Positions 3,405 through 13,926 of a stretch of 13,926 bases of DNA are shown one piece after another; the first letter of the stretch is position 1; every line of letters starts with the position of its first letter. Origin of the DNA: a virus (Duplodnaviria > Heunggongvirae > Uroviricota > Caudoviricetes); the IMG/VR virus record IMGVR_UViG_2529292830_000019; one strand, 5' to 3'. Made by a program: the position numbers and the translations under genes. Below the pieces are notes generated by a model. It was not told where the DNA came from and ran no database searches. It saw nothing but the letters and a program-made list of their open reading frames with translations.

Positions 3405-4611
3405 CTTTTCTCCCTTTAATTTCCACAGTCTGTTTCCATGCCTGGCTGAACTCATCACCACCTTCACGCGGCGGCATACCCTCGCGTTCGCGAGCTTCGT
3501 TCGGATTCATGATCCCGCTCTTAATCCCTTTCTCATACGTGGCATAACGTTCGGTGGGTGTGGCGCGCAGTAAATCGGCTGAATCAAACTCAACCAGATA
3601 ACGGGTACCAGGTACGGGAGAAGTCACCAGCAAAGCGGCCTTGATTTGCTGTTCGAAGTTCGCCAGCCACGGGCGCATTGTCATGGTCAGAAATGCGCGG
3701 CTCGCCTCACTGAAATTGCTGTAGGTGCTGTTGCTGTATTCCTGAAGAAAAATCGGCGACACGTTGAACATCCTGGCGATGTCTTCAATGGAGAAGCGAC
3801 GGGAGGCCAGCCATTCCGCATCCTGGTTACTCATCCCCAGCTGCCTGTAATCCATGCCCCCTTCAAGGATTGGCGTTTTTCCGGCATTTTTCGCCCCCTT
3901 GTAGCGTTCCAGTGCGTCTAATGCCTGTTTACCTTTCACGCCGTCCAGCCATTCACCTGACGTGATAATCCCTGCCGCCATCATGCCATCTTTCATAATG
4001 CTGGCTCCGTGACGCTGTTGAGCAAGGCCAAGCCCCAGCGCCTCACGGCAAATCGTGACGGGGGAACGCCCCAGAAAGCCATCATCCGAGGCATAGCGGA
4101 GATGCAGAACTTCTTCCTGTAAATACGTGCGCACCGTTCCTGTACAGGGTTCGGTGATGGTATAGCGGTATTTGTGTGTGCCTGTGCGTTCCGGTACAAC
4201 ACACCCCGGCGCATAAGGATGAAGTGATTTTGGCTGCCCGTCCCGCCCCCACTCAATAACCGCATAGGCGTTACCGTTCAGCAGGCAGTGACGCATCATT
4301 GTGCGTTTAAACTGGTAAGGTGTCAGGCACGAATTAGGCTGCTCATTCAGCAGAATATCTACCGGGTGACTGTCCAGCCATTCCCGCGCCTCTCTGCCCT
4401 TATCATTGCGTACCAGATACAGGTAACACGGCATCGTGGCCACCGCCTCAGCGATGACAGAAACCGCGTTCATCACAGCAGGCAATGATTCAGCCGTCCC
4501 GGCAGAAACATATTCTCCGGATCCGGTATTTGGTACACCAGACAACGCCAGAAAATCATCAATGGACAGGTTACGCAGATCGCTTTTTTTACGACTAAAA
4601 GGCCACCACAT
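3397..4611 (-). CDS. HK97-family portal protein, about 404 aa
   Basis: Size and sequence are portal-like. I chose ATG at 4611 (MWWPFSRKK...), one nucleotide after the protease stop; the ORF-track start at 4701 would overlap the protease gene. Confidence 0.85.
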   Translation of the reverse strand: MWWPFSRKKSDLRNLSIDDFLALSGVPNTGSGEYVSAGTAESLPAVMNAVSVIAEAVATMPCYLYLVRNDKGREAREWLDSHPVDILLNEQPNSCLTPYQFKRTMMRHCLLNGNAYAVIEWGRDGQPKSLHPYAPGCVVPERTGTHKYRYTITEPCTGTVRTYLQEEVLHLRYASDDGFLGRSPVTICREALGLGLAQQRHGASIMKDGMMAAGIITSGEWLDGVKGKQALDALERYKGAKNAGKTPILEGGMDYRQLGMSNQDAEWLASRRFSIEDIARMFNVSPIFLQEYSNSTYSNFSEASRAFLTMTMRPWLANFEQQIKAALLVTSPVPGTRYLVEFDSADLLRATPTERYATYEKGIKSGIMNPNEAREREGMPPREGGDEFSQAWKQTVEIKGRKDE

Positions 4612-4612
4612 A

Positions 4613-5173
4613 TCACAACCCCGCCAGTTCAGCCCAGCGATGACGATTATTTCCTGCCGGGCGTAATTCAGGGTACTGTGCAAACAACGAACGGTGGGCA
4701 ATCTCCACGCCGGATTCGGGATAAGCAGGCATCGATGTTATCGTGATTTCACGGAGTTCTGCTGCGGTTACAGTACGCAGATACGGTTTTTGCGCGATAT
4801 TCCACTCCTCGCATAATGCGCGAAAGCCAAAGCTCATTCCTGTAATATCGCCACGTTCCACCAGCGTAAGCACATCTTTTCCAAGCTGGGTATTTGGCGG
4901 TGTCAGTTCAAAACGTAGCCCGGTGTTATCCTCAGTCAGTACCAGTGAGCCGGATTTGGTACGCCCCAGCAGTTGGGTATAGTCATGCTCATACAGACAG
5001 CGCACATCATTACCTGCCGCCAGATAGTCAGCAAAAGCCCCCGGCGTGAACTGTTCGCGAAACTCGTCCCAGATAATTTCTGAAAGGCTGTTCCAGCGAA
5101 CGGCATAACCCACCAGTTTTTTATCGCTGGCGGTCAGTTCAGATGTACGGATTTCAAAATCGGTGTTTTTCAT
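4613..5173 (-). CDS. HK97-family prohead protease (S78/U35), about 186 aa
   Basis: MKNTDFEIRTSE...GYAVRWNSL...GMSFGFRA...ITSMPAYPESG matches the prohead-protease pattern. ATG at 5173 with GGAG 7 nt upstream; the ORF-track start at 5398 lies inside the capsid gene. Confidence 0.85.
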   Translation of the reverse strand: MKNTDFEIRTSELTASDKKLVGYAVRWNSLSEIIWDEFREQFTPGAFADYLAAGNDVRCLYEHDYTQLLGRTKSGSLVLTEDNTGLRFELTPPNTQLGKDVLTLVERGDITGMSFGFRALCEEWNIAQKPYLRTVTAAELREITITSMPAYPESGVEIAHRSLFAQYPELRPAGNNRHRWAELAGL

Positions 5174-6641: not shown

Positions 6642-6890
6642 TTATTGTTTCACTGGCTCCCGCATTCTGCGTCTTATTTTCCACAAATATTCGATCATCG
6701 CTTCCACCTGCTCACGGTTGGTTGCGAAAATTTCCCCGGTCAGTGAGCTACGCAGAAAATCATGATGATCCACAAAAAATAACGCATCGGAAGAAAGCAA
6801 CCGACGATATTTTTTTGCTGTCGTGGTTTCCAGATCATCAAAACCATGAAGCTTTTTATGTTGCTGAACTTCTTCAAATGTCACTGGCAT
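6642..6890 (-). CDS. Hypothetical protein, 82 aa
   Basis: ATG at 6890 overlaps the upstream gene by 10 nt (coupled). No family recognised. Confidence 0.5.
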   Translation of the reverse strand: MPVTFEEVQQHKKLHGFDDLETTTAKKYRRLLSSDALFFVDHHDFLRSSLTGEIFATNREQVEAMIEYLWKIRRRMREPVKQ

Positions 6891-7411
6891 GTATCCCCCT
6901 TTGCTGCCCGGCGCTGGCGCTTGTGCTTCTCATTCAGCACCATCAGCCGTGTTTCTGCCTCCTGCTGTTCCTGTGGTGTCACTTCCCCACATGGCTGGCC
7001 TTTCAGGTCGTAACGTGCGCCACCAGCTATCAGGGCGCGGTAATAGCGCGGAGACTGCGCATAGGATGCCAGCGTCGCACGTAATACCCCCGACCCGAAT
7101 GCCAGCCCCCTGACGGCGATATCCTGCATCAGGTCGTCGAATATCCCCACCTTAAGCGGCTTCGGTGCTTTATGGCTGAATAAGTCAGGCCACATCTCAG
7201 TGAGGCGGTTAACGCGTCGGCGGTTTTTGCGCTGCCTTTTGGTCATATGCTGCCACGGTGTCGCCCCTGTGGGCTTCTGCTGTGCGTTCTGATTGCCGGG
7301 TATCACTTTATGCGCCGATGTGGTTTTATCCTGCTCTTGCGCCGCCTGCGTCGTTTTCTGCGGCGTGCCGTAAATGCCTTTCGGCTTCCGGTTAATGGTC
7401 AGCGTTGTCAT
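6881..7411 (-). CDS. FinO/ProQ-domain RNA-binding protein (RNA chaperone-like), 176 aa
   Basis: Basic N-terminus followed by WPDLF...KPLKVGIFDDLMQDIA...LRATLASYAQSPRYYRALIAGGARYDLKGQPCGEVT, which parallels F-plasmid FinO (WPGLF...) and ProQ (KPLKIGIFQDLV...RVDLDGNPCGEL). GGGGGAAGG RBS. Confidence 0.7.
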   Translation of the reverse strand: MTTLTINRKPKGIYGTPQKTTQAAQEQDKTTSAHKVIPGNQNAQQKPTGATPWQHMTKRQRKNRRRVNRLTEMWPDLFSHKAPKPLKVGIFDDLMQDIAVRGLAFGSGVLRATLASYAQSPRYYRALIAGGARYDLKGQPCGEVTPQEQQEAETRLMVLNEKHKRQRRAAKGDTCQ

Positions 7412-7447: not shown

Positions 7448-7873
7448 TTAAAACGGTATGTTATCCCCGTACGGGTCATCGTGCTGGCTTGTCTGTTGTT
7501 TTGCCCTGTTCAGTGCGTCAGTGGCCTGGCCCTGTTGACCTTTTTTGCCGCCCGGTCGCGCCGTTCGCGCACTGATTACGCTGTCTGCAATAACCTGCCA
7601 GCCCTGCCGCGTTTCCCCGTTCTGGCCTGTCCACTGGCTCACCTGCATGTTACCCGCCACGCTCACCAGTTCGCCTTTGTGGTGTTTTGCCAGTGCGTCG
7701 GCCTGTCTGCCAAACACCAGGACAGATAACCACATCGTCGCCGTTCCGTCATCTGCCTGGCTGCATGGCAGGGGAACCGCCATACTCGCCATCGCCATTT
7801 GTGTCCCCTTGCTGGTGGTCTTTAACTGCGGGTCAGCCACCAGCCGCCCGTAAGCCGCTATCTGTGCTGTCAT
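7448..7873 (-). CDS. ssb: Single-stranded DNA-binding protein (SSB), 141 aa
   Basis: OB-fold-like core (WLSVLVFGRQADALAKHHKGELVSVAGNMQVSQWTGQNGETRQGW) and an acidic C-terminal tail ending DDPYGDNIPF, matching the SSB ...DDDIPF tail. ATG overlaps the upstream stop (ATGA). Confidence 0.8.
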   Translation of the reverse strand: MTAQIAAYGRLVADPQLKTTSKGTQMAMASMAVPLPCSQADDGTATMWLSVLVFGRQADALAKHHKGELVSVAGNMQVSQWTGQNGETRQGWQVIADSVISARTARPGGKKGQQGQATDALNRAKQQTSQHDDPYGDNIPF

Positions 7874-8159: not shown

Positions 8160-8400
8160 CCTTCACCTGTTCACCTTTTGAGATTTTCCCTTTTTATTCA
8201 TAATGTTAAGGAGTGAACAGTTTCACAAAAACTATTCACCAACTGTTCACCACTGTTCACCCTTAAAGCTCAATAAATAATCAAAAAGGTGAACAGTGAA
8301 TAGTTTGGTGAACAGTTCACAAATAACTGTTCACCCTATAATGTACTGATATAAAAGATATTTATAACAGGGTGAACAGTGGTGAACAGTTATTCCATAA
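8160..8400. repeat. Iteron-type replication origin: about ten copies of CTGTTCACC / GGTGAACAG in both orientations in AT-rich DNA, directly 3' of the primase gene
   Basis: Forward copies at 8167, 8243, 8253 and 8327; reverse copies at 8212, 8288, 8307, 8381 and 8391; variants CTATTCACC (8232) and TGAATAG (8297). Several are 10 bp apart. The motif equals the P4 type I iteron TGTTCACC as I recall it. Confidence 0.65.
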
Positions 8401-8402
8401 GT

Positions 8403-10217
8403 TTAATTTTTGCTGTCGTCATTTGTGACCGATGCACATGATGGCATCCAGTCTTCTGAATCCTCTGTCAGTGTCACATTTGAACGCAAACCGTGCTTCG
8501 TTTTCCGTTTTATATACTCCCTGCCATATTCCGCCATTGCCCCCGGCATATCTTTACCGAAGCGCGTCAGTGTTACAGGTTTACCGAATCCGTGTGCCCT
8601 CATATATGCCAGATAGGCGTGATAAAGATACCTGCGCGGACTGAACGGAATAATTTCGGCATTACCCACTAACAGACCATCACACATTACCGACGACATG
8701 AGATAGCCACAGAAGTCCACCAGCGAATCGCCCTCGCGTTTTATCACCAGAGCTTCTTCTGATTTCTGCTGCTCATACAGCAGGCGTTTAGCTTCGTCCT
8801 GGTCAGAAAAACGAGTAAGCAGATGGCGAATCACAACCGCCAGCTCTCCTTCTATTTTTTCTGCCAGCATGGGGTCGCGCTCGTTCTCCGGTACAACCTC
8901 CGAAAAATTGAATATCACCCGACGACGTGAGATCCCCCCGCTGCGGTCACTGAATGACATGGCGTTATTGTTCACCGCCAGCACGACCGCCTGAATGCGT
9001 GTTGAGTAGGGGGCTTTATGCTTCGGGTCGATTGCCACCTTGTCACCGCCTGTAATGGCCTTAATTCCTGCGCCATCACCAGCGTAGCGGGTCATATCCG
9101 GCATGATAATCAGCGAAAAGCCAACCACTAACGCGCGTTCCCTTGCATCTTCCAGCGCCTTCATGCTTGCCGATACTGTGTTGGCCTTACCCGCCAGCAT
9201 AGTGCAAATCTCCGCCATCACGCTTTTACCACTTCCCCCTGGACCTGTTACCTCAATGAATAACTGCCAGTCGTACCGGTTCGCCAGCACCATGAATAAT
9301 GCAGCCAGCACGCGATCCGTCTTGCGGTCATTCTCTGCCACCGAGCAGCGTAACCACTTCCAGAAATTCGGCGCATGTGTTGCCAGCGTTTCCCCCTCTG
9401 CTGGTGGGCTGAAAGGTAATTCACTGGCAATTAACAACCAGTCGTTTTTGTTATGCTCCCGAAAATTACCTGTTCTGGTATCAAATACCCCGTTACTGAA
9501 TCCAATCAGGTTACGGGCTGTATTCCCCATTACAGGCAAACTTAACTTCATGGTATCGACCGCCGATTTAATGGCGTTCTGCGAATAGCTGATCTCCGCA
9601 TCAATGAAAATCTGCGCCATAGCACGCTGTAACTCTTTATCCTGAATCGGCTCCCATACAACGCCGTTGTAATGGTGAACAGTGTCAGAGTCGGCATGAA
9701 TCGCCAGTTCACCGCCATAATGTGCCAGGAGAACTTCGCCGCGCTGGCTTGCTCCCATCTGGTTAAGCGCCAGTGGTGCGGCGCTGTCTTCTGTTTTTTT
9801 CTTAACAGGAAGCTGAATCACCAGACCATCAGAAAGATTCTGGCGCTCACGGGCCAGATATTCGCGCCAGTTCTGCACCTCCTGACCGTGCATACCCTCA
9901 GGATAAAAATTTGCATCCTGTACGCCTGCCGCCGCCAGCTTCTGACCAATCGCCTTTATCATTACTGGCGCAAGATATCCGGCCCTGAATATGCGCACGG
10001 ATTTTCTGCCTTCCGGCACAATTTGCAGCTTATCCAGTTCGGATAACTGCTGCTCCCCAAGCCACACAGGAGGCTCATTATCTCCGGCCATACGCGCGTC
10101 ATGTTCCTGCCATTGTTTTGCGTGTGACCAGGCATCACTACCCGCAAAAATAATGACTTCTGTTTCTTTGTGTTTTATGCCGCGTGACTGCTGTTTTACG
10201 TTCGGTGCCAGTTTCAT
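8403..10217 (-). CDS. Primase-helicase replication initiator (P4 alpha / D5-type, SF3 helicase Walker A), 604 aa
   Basis: Walker A GPGGSGKS within a D5-like helicase region, with a primase-like N-terminal half. ATG overlaps the upstream ORF stop (ATGA); the iteron origin lies immediately downstream. Confidence 0.85.
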   Translation of the reverse strand: MKLAPNVKQQSRGIKHKETEVIIFAGSDAWSHAKQWQEHDARMAGDNEPPVWLGEQQLSELDKLQIVPEGRKSVRIFRAGYLAPVMIKAIGQKLAAAGVQDANFYPEGMHGQEVQNWREYLARERQNLSDGLVIQLPVKKKTEDSAAPLALNQMGASQRGEVLLAHYGGELAIHADSDTVHHYNGVVWEPIQDKELQRAMAQIFIDAEISYSQNAIKSAVDTMKLSLPVMGNTARNLIGFSNGVFDTRTGNFREHNKNDWLLIASELPFSPPAEGETLATHAPNFWKWLRCSVAENDRKTDRVLAALFMVLANRYDWQLFIEVTGPGGSGKSVMAEICTMLAGKANTVSASMKALEDARERALVVGFSLIIMPDMTRYAGDGAGIKAITGGDKVAIDPKHKAPYSTRIQAVVLAVNNNAMSFSDRSGGISRRRVIFNFSEVVPENERDPMLAEKIEGELAVVIRHLLTRFSDQDEAKRLLYEQQKSEEALVIKREGDSLVDFCGYLMSSVMCDGLLVGNAEIIPFSPRRYLYHAYLAYMRAHGFGKPVTLTRFGKDMPGAMAEYGREYIKRKTKHGLRSNVTLTEDSEDWMPSCASVTNDDSKN

Positions 10218-10734: not shown

Positions 10735-10963
10735 GGTGCGCCCCCTGAATATCTGCGGTAAGAATTTTGCCTGCTTCATTCAGCGCCATATCAGCACTAA
10801 GTTGCATAACAGCCAGTGAGTGAGGAACGAAAGCCCCGGCATATTCTGTTTCGCTGGTGGCGCGCTTATGCGCCTTGTCTGCGATAACAGAAATATCAAT
10901 CAACGCGTGCATCAGCGTTTTGATGGCTTCGGCGGCTGCGTCCGGTGTGGTTTTATTGTGCAT
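10727..10963 (-). CDS. Hypothetical protein, 78 aa
   Basis: ORF in operon context; ATG at 10963 overlaps the upstream gene by 11 nt. No family recognised. Confidence 0.45.
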   Translation of the reverse strand: MHNKTTPDAAAEAIKTLMHALIDISVIADKAHKRATSETEYAGAFVPHSLAVMQLSADMALNEAGKILTADIQGAHHA

Positions 10964-11159
10964 AGGTTTCCCCCTGGCGAATACGGGCAGCGAATACCAT
11001 CACGCAGCCATCAGGAGATTGCTGACGCGCTTCCTGTTCGCTGGTGGCCTCAATGGTAATCACGCGCGGTTGTGCCGTGCTCAGGGCGATAAAACGCCAG
11101 ATGTATTTATTCAGGTTGTACGAGTCCCGCCCTTGCGGGTGTCTGGTATAATTTCTCAT
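10953..11159 (-). CDS. Hypothetical protein, about 68 aa, first gene of the leftward replication operon (alternative GTG start at 11219 gives 88 aa)
   Basis: ATG at 11159 preceded by GAGGT with 4-nt spacing; a GTG at 11219 is also in frame. Directly downstream of the operator/promoter region. Confidence 0.4.
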   Translation of the reverse strand: MRNYTRHPQGRDSYNLNKYIWRFIALSTAQPRVITIEATSEQEARQQSPDGCVMVFAARIRQGETYAQ

Positions 11160-11258
11160 AGCTACCTCGATACGCTTTCTATCGTTGGTGGTTAGAAGCC
11201 CTGCGAGTGGTAACGACACTTGCGGGGCTTTGTCTTTTCATCGATTACCTTAATAAAG

Positions 11259-11339
11259 GTGTCAGCCACTATACTAGTGACAGGTGTCAGCCACGTCAAT
11301 AGTGTTTTTCTATTTTCTTGTGTGTATACTGTCAGCCAC
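11259..11339. promoter_or_regulatory. Divergent operator region: three GTCAGCCAC repeats (11261, 11286, 11331), palindrome TGACAGGTGTCA (11278-11289) and two TATACT -10-like hexamers
   Basis: Read directly. Repeats overlap the -10-like elements of both the leftward promoter and the rightward promoter for the RHH gene. Confidence 0.5.
11271..11299 (-). promoter_or_regulatory. Candidate leftward promoter for the replication operon (-35 TTGACG at 11299..11294, 17-nt spacer, -10 TAGTAT at 11276..11271)
   Basis: Hexamers read on the minus strand. The spacer contains a GTCAGCCAC repeat and the palindrome TGACAGGTGTCA. Confidence 0.4.
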
Positions 11340-11360
11340 CTAATAACAAGGAAATCAGAT

Positions 11361-11540
11361 ATGGCAACGAAAGCAGTTAATGGAAAATCCAAAAAACTTG
11401 AGGCACGAGTACCCCATGCAATAGCTGACGCTGTAGAAAATTTAAAGGAAGAAGGCGAAAGCACTGGGCAATTTATCGTTTCGGCGCTTGAAGGTGAGAT
11501 CAAACGCCGCCAGCGCCGGAAGGCCAAAGAGCAGGAATAA
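11361..11540 (+). CDS. Small ribbon-helix-helix (CopG/Arc-like) DNA-binding protein, 59 aa; candidate repressor
   Basis: ATG at 11361 with AAGGA 8 nt upstream. KLEARVPHAIADAVENLKEEGES...FIVSALEGEI fits a beta-strand then two helices. The upstream part of the ORF-track frame is probably not coding. Confidence 0.55.
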   Translation: MATKAVNGKSKKLEARVPHAIADAVENLKEEGESTGQFIVSALEGEIKRRQRRKAKEQE

Positions 11541-11597
11541 CCATCACCAGCGCCGTGGTGTAAGGTATTACGGCGCATTGCTATGCAGGACAACACA

Positions 11598-11771
11598 ATG
11601 ACCGATAAAGAATTGACCAAAACATTATCACCGACACGGAAAAGACGACGCAGAAAGATAGAGCATGAATCAGAAAGATTCGCGCCATGTGCTTTTGCCC
11701 TTGAGCAATTCCTTAAAGAGTACAGGGAAAAGCGCTCATTGCAGGTATGGCAACGAACTGAACCAGACTGA
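11598..11771 (+). CDS. Hypothetical small basic protein, about 57 aa (alternative ATG at 11583)
   Basis: ORF following the RHH gene on the same strand, with AGGA 7 nt upstream of the ATG at 11598. Contains a KRRRRK tract. Weak call. Confidence 0.35.
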   Translation: MTDKELTKTLSPTRKRRRRKIEHESERFAPCAFALEQFLKEYREKRSLQVWQRTEPD

Positions 11772-11837: not shown

Positions 11838-11867
11838 GGCGACCCTTTTGCGGTCGCCTTTGTTTTG
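11838..11867 (+). terminator. Rho-independent terminator after the RHH/small-ORF unit
   Basis: GGCGACC-cttttgc-GGTCGCC hairpin followed by TTTGTTTTG. Confidence 0.5.
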
Positions 11868-12131: not shown

Positions 12132-12320
12132 TTAGTGAACTGCCTCGCGGCTGTCCTTCCATGCCAGAACTTCGGATAAAGACCAGCCAACGGAACGACC
12201 GCCGAGTTTACGCCGTGATGGGAATTGTCCGGTCTTTTCCAGGCGATACCGACATGAGCGGCTCAGGCCTGTAAGTTGCTGACATTCTTTTTCACGTATA
12301 AAGCGATCTGTGCTTAACAC
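12132..12320 (-). CDS. alpA: AlpA-family phage transcriptional regulator (excisionase-like winged HTH), 62 aa
   Basis: IREKECQQLTGLSRSCRYRLEKTGQFPSRRKLGGRSVGWSLSEVLAWK matches the AlpA (Phage_AlpA) pattern. GTG start at 12320 with AAGGGGG 4 nt upstream. Confidence 0.85.
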   Translation of the reverse strand: MLSTDRFIREKECQQLTGLSRSCRYRLEKTGQFPSRRKLGGRSVGWSLSEVLAWKDSREAVH

Positions 12321-12349: not shown

Positions 12350-12400
12350 CATTGGGTGGATTATTGGGTTGGGTTGTGTCGGATTGTGTCAGGGTGTTTA
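12350..12400. repeat. Phased TTGGGT / TTGTGTC repeats (about 10-bp period) immediately upstream of alpA
   Basis: cattgggtgg / attattgggtt / gggttgtgtc / ggattgtgtc / agggtgttta. A possible alpA promoter overlaps it on the minus strand (-35 TTGCCA at 12411..12406, -10 CACAAT at 12388..12383). Confidence 0.45.
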
Positions 12401-12613: not shown

Positions 12614-12676
12614 ATTTGTTCCAGATTGTTTGCCGTTGTTCGTCGTTGTGTCTCGTTGTTCCACGTTGTGTCCGTT
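12614..12676. repeat. Six to seven tandem 10-bp-phased repeats of (c)GTTGT(T/G)(T)C just 3' of the integrase stop
   Basis: atTTGTTCc / agATTGTTTG / ccGTTGTTCgt / cGTTGTGTCtc / GTTGTTCcac / GTTGTGTCc / GTTCtg, read directly. Confidence 0.6.
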
Positions 12677-12696: not shown

Positions 12697-13926
12697 TTAT
12701 ATTTCTCTGGCTATTGGCAGTGTGGTTACGTTTTCGTGAGTACCCGCCAGTATCTCTAACCGCTCTGTCCACATGTCCAGCGCATTACGTTTCGCATCGA
12801 GATAACGGGAGTGGTTATAGACTCGCTGCATCCCTGGCATCTGGTGAGCGGTGAGTTGTTCGACAATATGCGGATCCACGCCTAAATCGTTCAGCATCGT
12901 GGTAAACGTGCGCCGTATATCGTGTAGTGACCAGTGCGGATGGTTTAATTTTTTGTGCGTGAATCTGCCGTATTGCGACACGCTGGCTTCCTGTTTCAGT
13001 TCCCCGAGTAATAGTCCTGTGTGTCGGTTCTGCTCCACCAGCCGTGTGACGAACGGTAAAATGCTTTCCGGTATTGGCCTGAATATGGCGACCTTCGTTT
13101 TGCTGTGCTCCTTCGGTACTGTCCAGAGCATTTCCTTAAAATCCCCCTCCCTGATCTCCGACAGCCTCAGTTCTCCGGTTCGGCAACCAAACACAATCAG
13201 GAGGCGGATTAGTGCGCTGTAGTAGGGCGGGAATATTTTTTTATCCAGCGCCTGTAATAATTCGCCCAGTTCTTTGTTACTAAGCACGCGTTCGCTTATG
13301 CCCGGCTTTTTGCCAACGTCCACCACGTTGAGATCATCCAGAACGTTACTGACTGCGTAGCGACGTTTACGGCAGAACTTAAGCGCCTGTTTACACGCCT
13401 GCATCATGTGACCAGACGTTACGGGGGATTTTTTGCGTATCCGGTCAAAACAGGCCAGCCAGTGACGTAATTCGCATTTATCCAGTGGCATGTTACCGAT
13501 GTGCTGTATGACGTGATTATTCAGGCGACTTTTCAGGCATACATAATCGACACGGTTTTCCTTTCCGTGCGTTTCCAGCCAGTAACTGATCGCATCGCCA
13601 ACCGTTACGGGTTTTAACGCTTCCTGCACAGTGTAGTTCAGTTCATGACGTGGGTTTTTCCCTTCTGCCAGCCATGCACGACACTTTGCGGCTTTTTCCC
13701 TGGCTGCTTTAAGGCTCAGATCGGGATAGTTTCCCAGCTTCAGGCGTTCCGGTGTGGTATCCCTTCCCGTTCCAGCCCTGTAGGTGAAGTACCAGGTCAA
13801 TTTACCTGATGTTAAATATTTCACGCTCAGATTACCGCCATCGCTATAGAACGTATTTTTCTCCGCTGGCTTACCATAAAGTTTTCTTAACAATGTATCG
13901 TTCAGTTTGTTAAGCGCTCTGCTCAC
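12697..13926 (-). CDS. int: Tyrosine recombinase / integrase, P4/CP4-57 type, at least 409 aa; 5' end at or beyond the window edge
   Basis: N-terminal arm-binding-like region (LNDTLLRKL...GNLSVKYLTSGKLTWYFTYR...LKLGNYPDLSLKAAREKA) and a catalytic domain with HDIRRT and the C-terminal tyrosine region. The frame is open to the last base; the codon at 13926..13924 is GTG. Confidence 0.9.
   Translation of the reverse strand: MSRALNKLNDTLLRKLYGKPAEKNTFYSDGGNLSVKYLTSGKLTWYFTYRAGTGRDTTPERLKLGNYPDLSLKAAREKAAKCRAWLAEGKNPRHELNYTVQEALKPVTVGDAISYWLETHGKENRVDYVCLKSRLNNHVIQHIGNMPLDKCELRHWLACFDRIRKKSPVTSGHMMQACKQALKFCRKRRYAVSNVLDDLNVVDVGKKPGISERVLSNKELGELLQALDKKIFPPYYSALIRLLIVFGCRTGELRLSEIREGDFKEMLWTVPKEHSKTKVAIFRPIPESILPFVTRLVEQNRHTGLLLGELKQEASVSQYGRFTHKKLNHPHWSLHDIRRTFTTMLNDLGVDPHIVEQLTAHQMPGMQRVYNHSRYLDAKRNALDMWTERLEILAGTHENVTTLPIAREI

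Follow-up and report, generated by a model that had tools for sequence, protein, structure and literature searches.

What, if anything, represses the replication and packaging genes of the phage-inducible chromosomal islands (PICIs) of Gram-negative bacteria? The founding paper on these satellites left it unclear whether a global repressor exists, and the published model of their control comprises only an activator, AlpA (PMC6092414). The question is raised by a 200-bp gap in a 13,926-nt stretch of viral DNA (IMG/VR record IMGVR_UViG_2529292830_000019, Caudoviricetes; the whole stretch is called the window below), which separates an Icd-like gene, the first of a leftward operon, from the first plus-strand gene, which is read rightward and encodes a 59-residue protein of the YlcI/YnfO family. 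An element of ~14.6 kb that interrupts yifB in Escherichia coli NCCP 13717 matches the window with 100% identity, and the window, judged by its gene content, is a capsid-forming PICI-type phage satellite of E. coli. On the basis of comparative sequence analysis and a structural model of the monomer, we propose, with a probability of roughly three in four, that this region is the control switch of the satellite, composed of a ribbon-helix-helix (RHH) repressor, GTG-N5-CAC operators and an additional layer of antisense RNA, and exchanged between satellites as a ~320-bp cassette.

Three putative operators at two predicted divergent promoters

The initial annotation of this region described two back-to-back promoters interleaved with three short repeats and a palindrome, and assigned the repeats to a small RHH protein. 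The elements in question are the following.

10953-11159, minus strand: Icd-like gene, first of the leftward operon (NF033153, 70.3 bits; Pfam and PGAP annotation of the identical record)
11247-11260: inverted repeat ACCTT-AATA-AAGGT, which abuts O1 and would form a hairpin at the extreme 5' end of the PL transcript
11259-11269: putative operator O1, exact 11-mer GTGTCAGCCAC, over the predicted PL start
11271-11299, minus strand: predicted leftward promoter PL of the icd/replication operon, with -35 TTGACG at 11299-11294, a 17-nt spacer and -10 TAGTAT at 11276-11271
11284-11294: putative operator O2, GTGTCAGCCAC, in the 17-nt PL spacer, its final base shared with the -35
11302-11330, plus strand: predicted rightward promoter PR of the RHH gene, with -10 TATACT at 11325-11330 and a weak -35 GTGTTT at 11302-11307
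11329-11339: putative operator O3, CTGTCAGCCAC, sharing the final 2 nt of the PR -10 and covering the start predicted for PR
11361-11540, plus strand: gene of the 59-residue YlcI/YnfO-family protein, a predicted RHH repressor (ATG at 11361)

All three copies of the repeat are real. The 10-mer TGTCAGCCAC stands exactly at 11260, 11285 and 11330 (spacings of 25 and 45), its first two copies embedded in a 23-nt direct repeat, and in none of 400 first-order Markov simulations of the window did any 10-mer occur three times within 80 nt. The 9-mer GTCAGCCAC, exact at 11261, 11286 and 11331, has ten matches with at most one mismatch where 3.05 are expected, a number that none of 200 shuffles attained. 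This 9-mer is, however, not the true repeat unit, which is an 11-bp GTG-N5-CAC site (GTGTCAGCCAC at 11259 and 11284, CTGTCAGCCAC at 11329). The fourth exact copy of GTCAGCCAC, at 7832 within ssb (7830-7840, context GGGTCAGCCAC), lacks the GTG end, differs from the operator by a single base and was put down to chance; about 0.1 matches one base off the operator, like GGGTCAGCCAC, are expected by chance in the window. The palindrome TGACAGGTGTCA is also present, at 11278-11289, and is disrupted in L003, the closest relative (TAACAGGTGTCA), and missing from all other operator classes. Given this lack of conservation it was rejected as a functional part of the switch and is probably incidental.

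A consensus scan independently reported the leftward promoter, as TTGACG-17-TAGTAT, with a start that would lie near 11264, and one repeat does fall in its spacer and another over its predicted start, as had been claimed. For the rightward promoter the earlier description stands in part: there is a good, conserved -10, TATACT, abutting the third copy of TGTCAGCCAC, but the only available -35 is weak. With sites in the PL spacer, at the PL start and just past the rightward -10, the layout is the one proposed at the outset, that of repression combined with autoregulation.

One layout, fourteen operator cores

We compared 30 homologous regions from 16 genera (given L numbers where needed): 12 from E. 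coli genomes (65-93% identity), 8 found in other species by genome scan and 10 obtained by exact-protein look-up, from Xenorhabdus, Proteus, Pectobacterium, Salmonella, Yersinia, Enterobacter, Serratia and metagenome assemblies. Within E. coli, the icd/ylcI region is matched in 1466 of 5426 complete genomes, 824 of which have at least 80% of it. All three sites occur in 29 of the 30 loci, O1 being absent from L025, and they have the form [G/C]TG-N5-CA[C/G] over 11 bp (10 bp for O2 of L029). The position of O2 relative to the ylcI ATG is -77 (+/-1) throughout, and in most loci the site abuts GTCAA or TTCAA, the complement of a TTGAC or TTGAA -35 (CTCAA or ATCAA in L019, L028 and L031). O3 is at -32 in nearly all loci, straight after the conserved TATACT; in the TTGAA class (E. 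coli, Edwardsiella) it is at -61, over the rightward -35. Homologues of O1 lie at approximately -98 to -113 in 29 of the 30 relatives, in inverted orientation in some. The sites can also be inverted relative to one another, as are GTGTATTTCAC and GTGAAATACAC in L005, and this property, together with their form, points to 11-bp pseudo-palindromic operators rather than 9-bp direct repeats.

The positions of both promoters are conserved across the 30 relatives, in agreement with the initial assignment of a back-to-back pair. Of 30 distinct sequences, 26 yielded the PL pattern TTGA[CA]N, 17-18 nt, TAnnnT, and the PR -10, TATACT or a variant one base off, is at -36 from the ATG in all relatives, preceded throughout by a weak, T-rich -35. 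In place of the 11247-11260 inverted repeat, relatives (including L002, L006, L024, L026, L027 and L029) have CCTTG-N6-8-CAAGG, independent of operator class.

Within this constant layout the N5 core differs from element to element, each element having a single core common to its three sites. There are 14 classes: TCAGC, TGGCC, TCGGA, TATTT, TTGAA, AATCG, GAATC, TGCTC, ACTCC, TAAGA, CTTAG, GACTC, AACAC and GCACC. Sites such as GTGTGGCCCAC and GTGTTGAACAC would be non-cognate to the window protein.

Two residues of a predicted ribbon-helix-helix protein follow the operator core

The window protein is a member of the YlcI/YnfO family (NCBIfam NF041551; 61.9 bits against a cutoff of 30, E 4.2e-17, residues 9-50), under which name PGAP also lists it in the identical record, and phrog_6522 (profile length 101) matches it across its first 57 positions. 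At the level of sequence profiles it has no match among the Pfam RHH (MetJ/Arc/CopG) families or elsewhere in Pfam. In the monomer model, an N-terminal strand (about residues 9-17) is followed by two helices, an arrangement that can be superposed on solved RHH domains; overall support for a ribbon-helix-helix fold is moderate. Homologues are conserved save for the block of residues 11-14, which is set in an invariant frame, N7-x-K9-S10-xxxx-A-R16-x-P18-H19. In the hhalign alignment to Arc, residues 12 and 14, the predicted specificity positions, correspond to Q9 and N11, and the invariant R16 to R13. Taken with the covariation described below, this correspondence lends indirect support to a dimer whose antiparallel sheet would lie in the major groove of the repeated operators. 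Locus L008 contains a second, longer gene of the family (4458-4763, 101 aa) in the same island, downstream of the first.

The strand tetrapeptide is associated with the operator core more strongly than in any of 100,000 permutations, a figure that overstates the significance because the loci share phylogenetic history. Of the 52 columns of the protein compared, 14 and 12 are the best predictors of the core: neither varies inside a class, and when two classes are paired the residues are different in 95% and 87% of cases, respectively. Helix-surface positions 24, 27 and 44 are equally variable and do not predict the core class. A prediction made in advance, that KKLE proteins of distant genera would have TCAGC sites, held: GTGTCAGCCAC sites accompany the KKLE proteins of Xenorhabdus and Proteus and also the RKLE protein of Pectobacterium. 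These proteins are 71-76% identical to that of the window. When the five sequences are aligned, no change is seen in the sites or the promoter hexamers, and the surrounding DNA has diverged. In parallel fashion, KRFD proteins of Salmonella go with the same core (TCGGA) as KRID proteins of E. coli, and QTLA proteins of Yersinia with the same core (TTGAA) as QTVA proteins. The suggestion that the repeats are operators of the small protein is therefore supported in silico, since the core co-varies with residues 12 and 14 and not with the alleles of AlpA, Icd or primase.

A predicted antisense RNA over the icd leader

To the left of the operators, and outside the interval covered by the initial annotation, the plus strand contains two further predicted elements.

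11144-11152, plus strand: extended -10, TGgTATAAT, of a predicted antisense RNA, within icd codons 3-6
11158-11241, plus strand: predicted ~84-nt cis-antisense RNA, with stem-loops SL1 (11159-11194) and SL2 (11195-11231) and a U-rich tail (11232-11241)

The segment 11158-11242 folds as two stem-loops with a minimum free energy of -40.1 kcal/mol (z = -6.0), with SL1 lying opposite the start codon and Shine-Dalgarno sequence of icd. On the plus strand, 11195-11231 has the makings of an intrinsic terminator, with 15 pairs (8 of them G-C) followed by GTCTTTTCAT; the minus strand has no U-run. The same stem-loops might instead act in the leader of the leftward mRNA, stabilising or attenuating it, with no antisense RNA involved, or SL2 might only insulate PR. 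The region is also transcribed leftward from PL, structures in leaders are common, the plus-strand RNA is a prediction, and its -10 lies in coding sequence that includes a conserved Thr codon. Comparisons of the two strands favor the plus strand. All 16 distinct variants of the hairpins fold better on the plus strand (mean -23.4 vs -16.9 kcal/mol, with 2-3 vs 0-1 G.U pairs), and RNAalifold, applied to 28 sequences, yields -25.6 kcal/mol and 22 pairs on the plus strand against -1.3 kcal/mol and 3 pairs on the minus strand. In the plus-strand structure 94.6% of the alignment cells are paired and 14 pairs show compensatory change, with none of 500 shuffles matching it on any measure and controls in which the structure was slid along the alignment pairing at 35-53%; read on the minus strand, pairing falls to 77.9%, and G.U cells number 105 on the plus strand compared with 2 on the minus strand.

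The putative promoter is conserved in register with the structure. In 23 of 25 distinct sequences TAnnnT occurs exactly 14 nt ahead of the first base of the stem, and it is kept across unrelated N-terminal peptides, those of Icd-like and Ash-like first genes; its A2 coincides with the synonymous third base of a codon, which on the coding strand is T without exception. For 11 kb upstream there is no plus-strand gene whose transcript a terminator would have to end. These observations render the leader alternative, including the insulator version, unlikely, and a ~84-nt cis-antisense RNA over the icd leader is probably the simplest reading. Neither C4 (RF01695) nor IsrK (RF01394) has a match in the whole window at E <=1, and 11100-11380 has no Rfam match at E <=10; the known immunity RNAs C4, IsrK and FinP were accordingly rejected as its identity.

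Other explanations of the protein-operator match

The association between protein and sites could reflect hitch-hiking in a recombining cassette, the repeats having no dedicated reader or being sites for a host factor. Gene and sites are indeed tightly linked and travel as one ~320-bp cassette, with sharp boundaries at 11200 and 11520 in plots of sliding identity: the window and L006 are ~100% identical on the flanks and 42-78% identical across 11200-11520, and the comparison with L003 gives the converse. The non-independence of the loci also counts in favor of this explanation. A host factor, however, cannot account for 14 cores, each triplicated in its own element, and the 11-mers and hexamers are invariant across E. 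coli, Xenorhabdus, Proteus and Pectobacterium, whereas the intervening DNA has diverged. Furthermore, the columns that best predict the core are alternate strand positions of the kind expected to face the DNA, not the variable positions of the helices. We thus regard hitch-hiking as quite improbable; the argument for a matched protein and operator rests on which residues co-vary and on the selective conservation of the sites. The joints of recombination fall in a conserved GGTTAGAAGCCC stem base and in a conserved C-terminal GEIKRRQRRKAKE coding sequence.

It is still less probable that another protein of the element reads the repeats and that the small protein has some other role. Candidates exist, as AlpA is a DNA-binding regulator required for PICI gene expression (PMC6092414), the Icd-like protein matches phrog_6196, labelled 'transcriptional repressor', and initiators bind repeated sites. 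The distribution of alleles led us to reject AlpA, Icd and primase alike. L006 has AlpA (WP_001409403), Icd (WP_001247061) and DUF4222 proteins identical to those of the window and yet a different RHH allele and different sites, and L003 has the same RHH protein and sites as the window with a different AlpA, Icd and primase. Similarly, the islands of E. coli CFT073 (L002) and of O157:H7 strain 2571 (L007), both at roxA, share identical integrase (WP_000085269) and AlpA (WP_000953274) and differ in strand and core, QALK with TGGCC in the former and QQLN with AATCG in the latter; cross-regulation is directly testable between these two islands. As for the initiator, it has iterons of its own, CTGTTCACC, at 8166-8394, beside the primase gene, and the switch layout is the same in some relatives in which a RepA helicase replaces the primase, for which reasons the repeats were also rejected as origin iterons.

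Lastly, the RHH protein might belong to a toxin-antitoxin or addiction pair, as antitoxin or autoregulator, with the 62-residue basic open reading frame (ORF) downstream, its repeats being purely autoregulatory. This is very improbable, since that ORF is missing from many relatives that have the full switch, two of the three sites overlap PL and not PR, and the conserved adjacent toxin typical of type II systems was not found, the ORF having no match to a toxin family in Pfam, family HMMs or PHROGs.

A model of the switch and the points against it

From the anatomy of the locus, its conservation, the covariation, the fold similarity and the strand-specific RNA structure we infer binding, repression, expression of the RNA and a link through AlpA to induction by the helper, as follows. 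The protein would form an RHH dimer whose two-stranded sheet reads the 11-bp GTG-N5-CAC sites, the GTG/CAC ends being recognized by the invariant K9, S10 and R16 and the variable core by residues 12 and 14. When it occupies O2 and O1, it would exclude RNA polymerase from PL and keep the replication and packaging operon silent; bound at O3, right after the PR -10, it would limit its own synthesis. In addition, a constitutive ~84-nt RNA may be transcribed rightward from the -10 within the first icd codons and terminate 28 nt before O1. Being fully complementary to the icd leader, Shine-Dalgarno sequence and AUG, this RNA would block translation of any leaky or read-through transcript. Exchange between satellites of the operators and the N-terminal 50 codons, as a ~320-bp cassette, would then generate distinct 'immunity' specificity types.

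Several observations weigh against this proposal. With regard to the fold, matches to RHH_1, CB_ParB_C and PSK_trans_fac are subthreshold and confined to 1-6 of 36 homologues (RHH_1 to 1 of 36), no sequence relative was found in the PDB, Foldseek returned nothing significant (E > 4), and the hhalign probability for Arc is 21%. The operators are 20-100 bp from the gene, so that co-inheritance alone would link gene and sites, and the association statistics are inflated to that extent. The -35 of PR is poor, and the O1-O2 spacing varies between 22 and 36 bp, which means that cooperative binding, if any, does not follow a simple phasing. Because the codons of a conserved x-Thr motif overlap the antisense -10, its conservation may in part be that of the protein. 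Finally, induction of the model island EcCICFT073 has been explained by the activator AlpA alone, the overexpression of which is sufficient (PMC6092414); any repressor must hence be overridden by AlpA. As alpA points the same way as the icd operon and converges on the RHH gene, a speculative route of induction is that AlpA drives transcription across the repressor gene and on into the operon. A search with tblastn for a helper-phage homologue able to poison the dimer found no match among 50,697 phage records.

Gene content and context of the element

The features surrounding the switch are listed below.

6881-7411, minus strand: ProQ/FinO-family RNA-chaperone gene (annotation of the identical record, family-HMM search)
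8403-10217, minus strand: D5-type primase (annotation of the identical record, Pfam)
11583-11771, plus strand: small basic ORF (62 aa) downstream of the RHH gene (ORF list, phrog_21027)
11838-11858, plus strand: terminator from a terminator scan, which would end the PR transcript
12132-12320, minus strand: alpA (PF05930, E 2.7e-18), oriented as the icd operon and convergent with the RHH gene
12697-13926, minus strand: tyrosine integrase (annotation of the identical record)

Gram-negative PICIs are recognized by int and alpA at one end, a primase or replicase module and the lack of lysis and tail genes (PMC6092414, 10.1101/2022.09.08.507074). According to Pfam and the annotation of the identical record, the window has int and alpA at one end, a primase module and no lysis or tail genes. 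It also encodes its own capsid, protease, portal, connector, HNH, TerS and TerL proteins, which match the gene set described for capsid-forming PICIs (10.1101/2022.09.08.507074). The leftward operon runs in the order Icd-like gene, three small ORFs, DUF4222, D5-type primase, SSB, ProQ/FinO-family protein, major capsid protein, prohead protease, portal, connector, HNH, TerS and TerL, and two small plus-strand genes occupy the interval from alpA, whose product is the published activator of Gram-negative PICIs (PMC6092414), to icd. The regulatory end is 87.7% identical in DNA sequence to EcCICFT073, with 96% query coverage. Induction by helper phages and transfer have been demonstrated in model relatives (PMC6092414, 10.1101/2022.09.08.507074).

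The insertion in yifB, which encodes a Mg-chelatase-like ATPase, leaves two annotated pseudogene fragments in L001 (53-1417 and 16212-16385); relatives with the same switch are integrated at roxA, yljB/cspD, allE and other sites. The Icd-like protein, which hits phrog_6196 with E 2e-41, is called a cell-division inhibitor by NCBIfam, so that its labels conflict. Just 3' of the primase gene, at 8166-8394, there are at least 12 CTGTTCACC/GGTGAACAG iterons in both orientations, and this field is probably the replication origin of the satellite; its repeats resemble the TGTTCACC iterons of P4 ori/crr. Two plant-miRNA matches in Rfam, at 8217-8417, were rejected as artefacts of the iteron inverted repeats. 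Two clusters of GTTGTGTC-like repeats phased at 10 bp, one at 12363-12397 over the predicted alpA promoter (-10 at 12383-12388) and the other at 12615-12669 at the 3' end of int, are candidate sites for AlpA or arm-type sites for the integrase.

Relation to known switches

The immI region of phage P22 combines two RHH repressors, Mnt and Arc, with the divergent promoters Pant and Pmnt and the antisense RNA sar. The logic is similar to that of the window, which has a single RHH protein instead of two, with no Pfam match to Arc or Mnt, and three separate 11-bp sites in contrast to a single 21-bp operator for a tetramer; the target in P22 is the antirepressor, whereas here it would be the replication and packaging operon of a satellite, with an antisense RNA over the leader of its first gene. 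Copy control in plasmid pMV158 likewise relies on an RHH repressor, CopG, and on antisense RNA II acting on repB, with CopG co-transcribed with repB and bound to a 13-bp pseudo-palindrome. The window differs in that the repressor gene is divergent, there are three sites, the element is an integrated, helper-dependent satellite and the protein is of the YlcI/YnfO family (NF041551).

Stl and Rpr, the repressors of the staphylococcal islands (SaPIs) and of Gram-positive PICIs, are much larger proteins with helix-turn-helix DNA-binding domains. The likeness lies in a repressor gene divergent from an operon for excision (xis), replication and packaging, and in high allelic diversity. The window protein is a 59-residue RHH with no known helper-protein partner, and published induction of Gram-negative PICIs proceeds via AlpA, whereas Stl/Rpr repression is lifted by complex formation with a helper-phage protein (PMC6092414). 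By sequence, the window switch is a member of none of the P22 immI, pMV158 CopG or Stl/Rpr families.

At the RNA level, the P4 CI RNA and the P1 c4-icd-ant system resemble the window in placing a lock on an operon that starts with an icd-like gene. C4 and CI are processed from the sense leader and act within the same transcript, unlike the window RNA, which would come from the opposite strand with its own predicted promoter and terminator. In F-like plasmids, the antisense RNA FinP works with the chaperone FinO. As in that system, the window has a predicted antisense RNA of two stem-loops directed to the 5' untranslated region and ribosome-binding site of the first regulatory gene, and it encodes a ProQ/FinO-family protein; FinP and the window RNA share no sequence or Rfam relation, and only some of the relatives with the RNA are known to have ProQ/FinO. 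The presence of both components suggests a FinP/FinO-like pair.

Implications for satellite biology

A later survey of Gram-negative PICIs reports C4/IsrK immunity RNAs in some of them, describes these RNAs and Bro-N proteins beside alpA, and mentions no RHH protein (PMC10111431). We found no publication that ties an RHH protein to AlpA-type satellites or assigns a function to YlcI/YnfO, with the proviso that many subscription papers lie outside the search and a prior description is possible. The type of switch is thus known, and the family and its role in Gram-negative PICIs appear to be undescribed.

The recurrence of the same layout in at least 14 matched versions of protein and site makes the 59-residue protein a good candidate for the repressor that has been thought lacking. 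Going further, and tentatively, since we consider the full combination doubtful, the master repressor missing from the picture of Gram-negative PICIs, and of enterobacterial satellites related to them, might be the RHH protein of the YlcI/YnfO type. Its immunity specificities, interchangeable and at least 14 in number, would be dictated by a 5-bp operator core and two residues of the strand. A cis-antisense RNA of no known class would act as backup, possibly served by the ProQ/FinO protein of the element. Helper induction would work through AlpA-driven read-through from the alpA promoter across the convergent repressor gene into the icd operon, which would at once silence the repressor and bypass its operators. 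If this is true, one cell could house several satellites of different specificity that do not repress each other.

PICIs of Gram-negative bacteria, and the capsid-forming ones, are widespread and move virulence and defence genes. A candidate repressor of 59 residues with a readable specificity code would offer a direct handle on the quiescence and immunity of these satellites, and the sequence classes supply at least 14 candidate orthogonal repressor/operator pairs. The mosaic cassette that distinguishes otherwise identical islands would be explained, and a family known only as a 'y-gene' would acquire a function.

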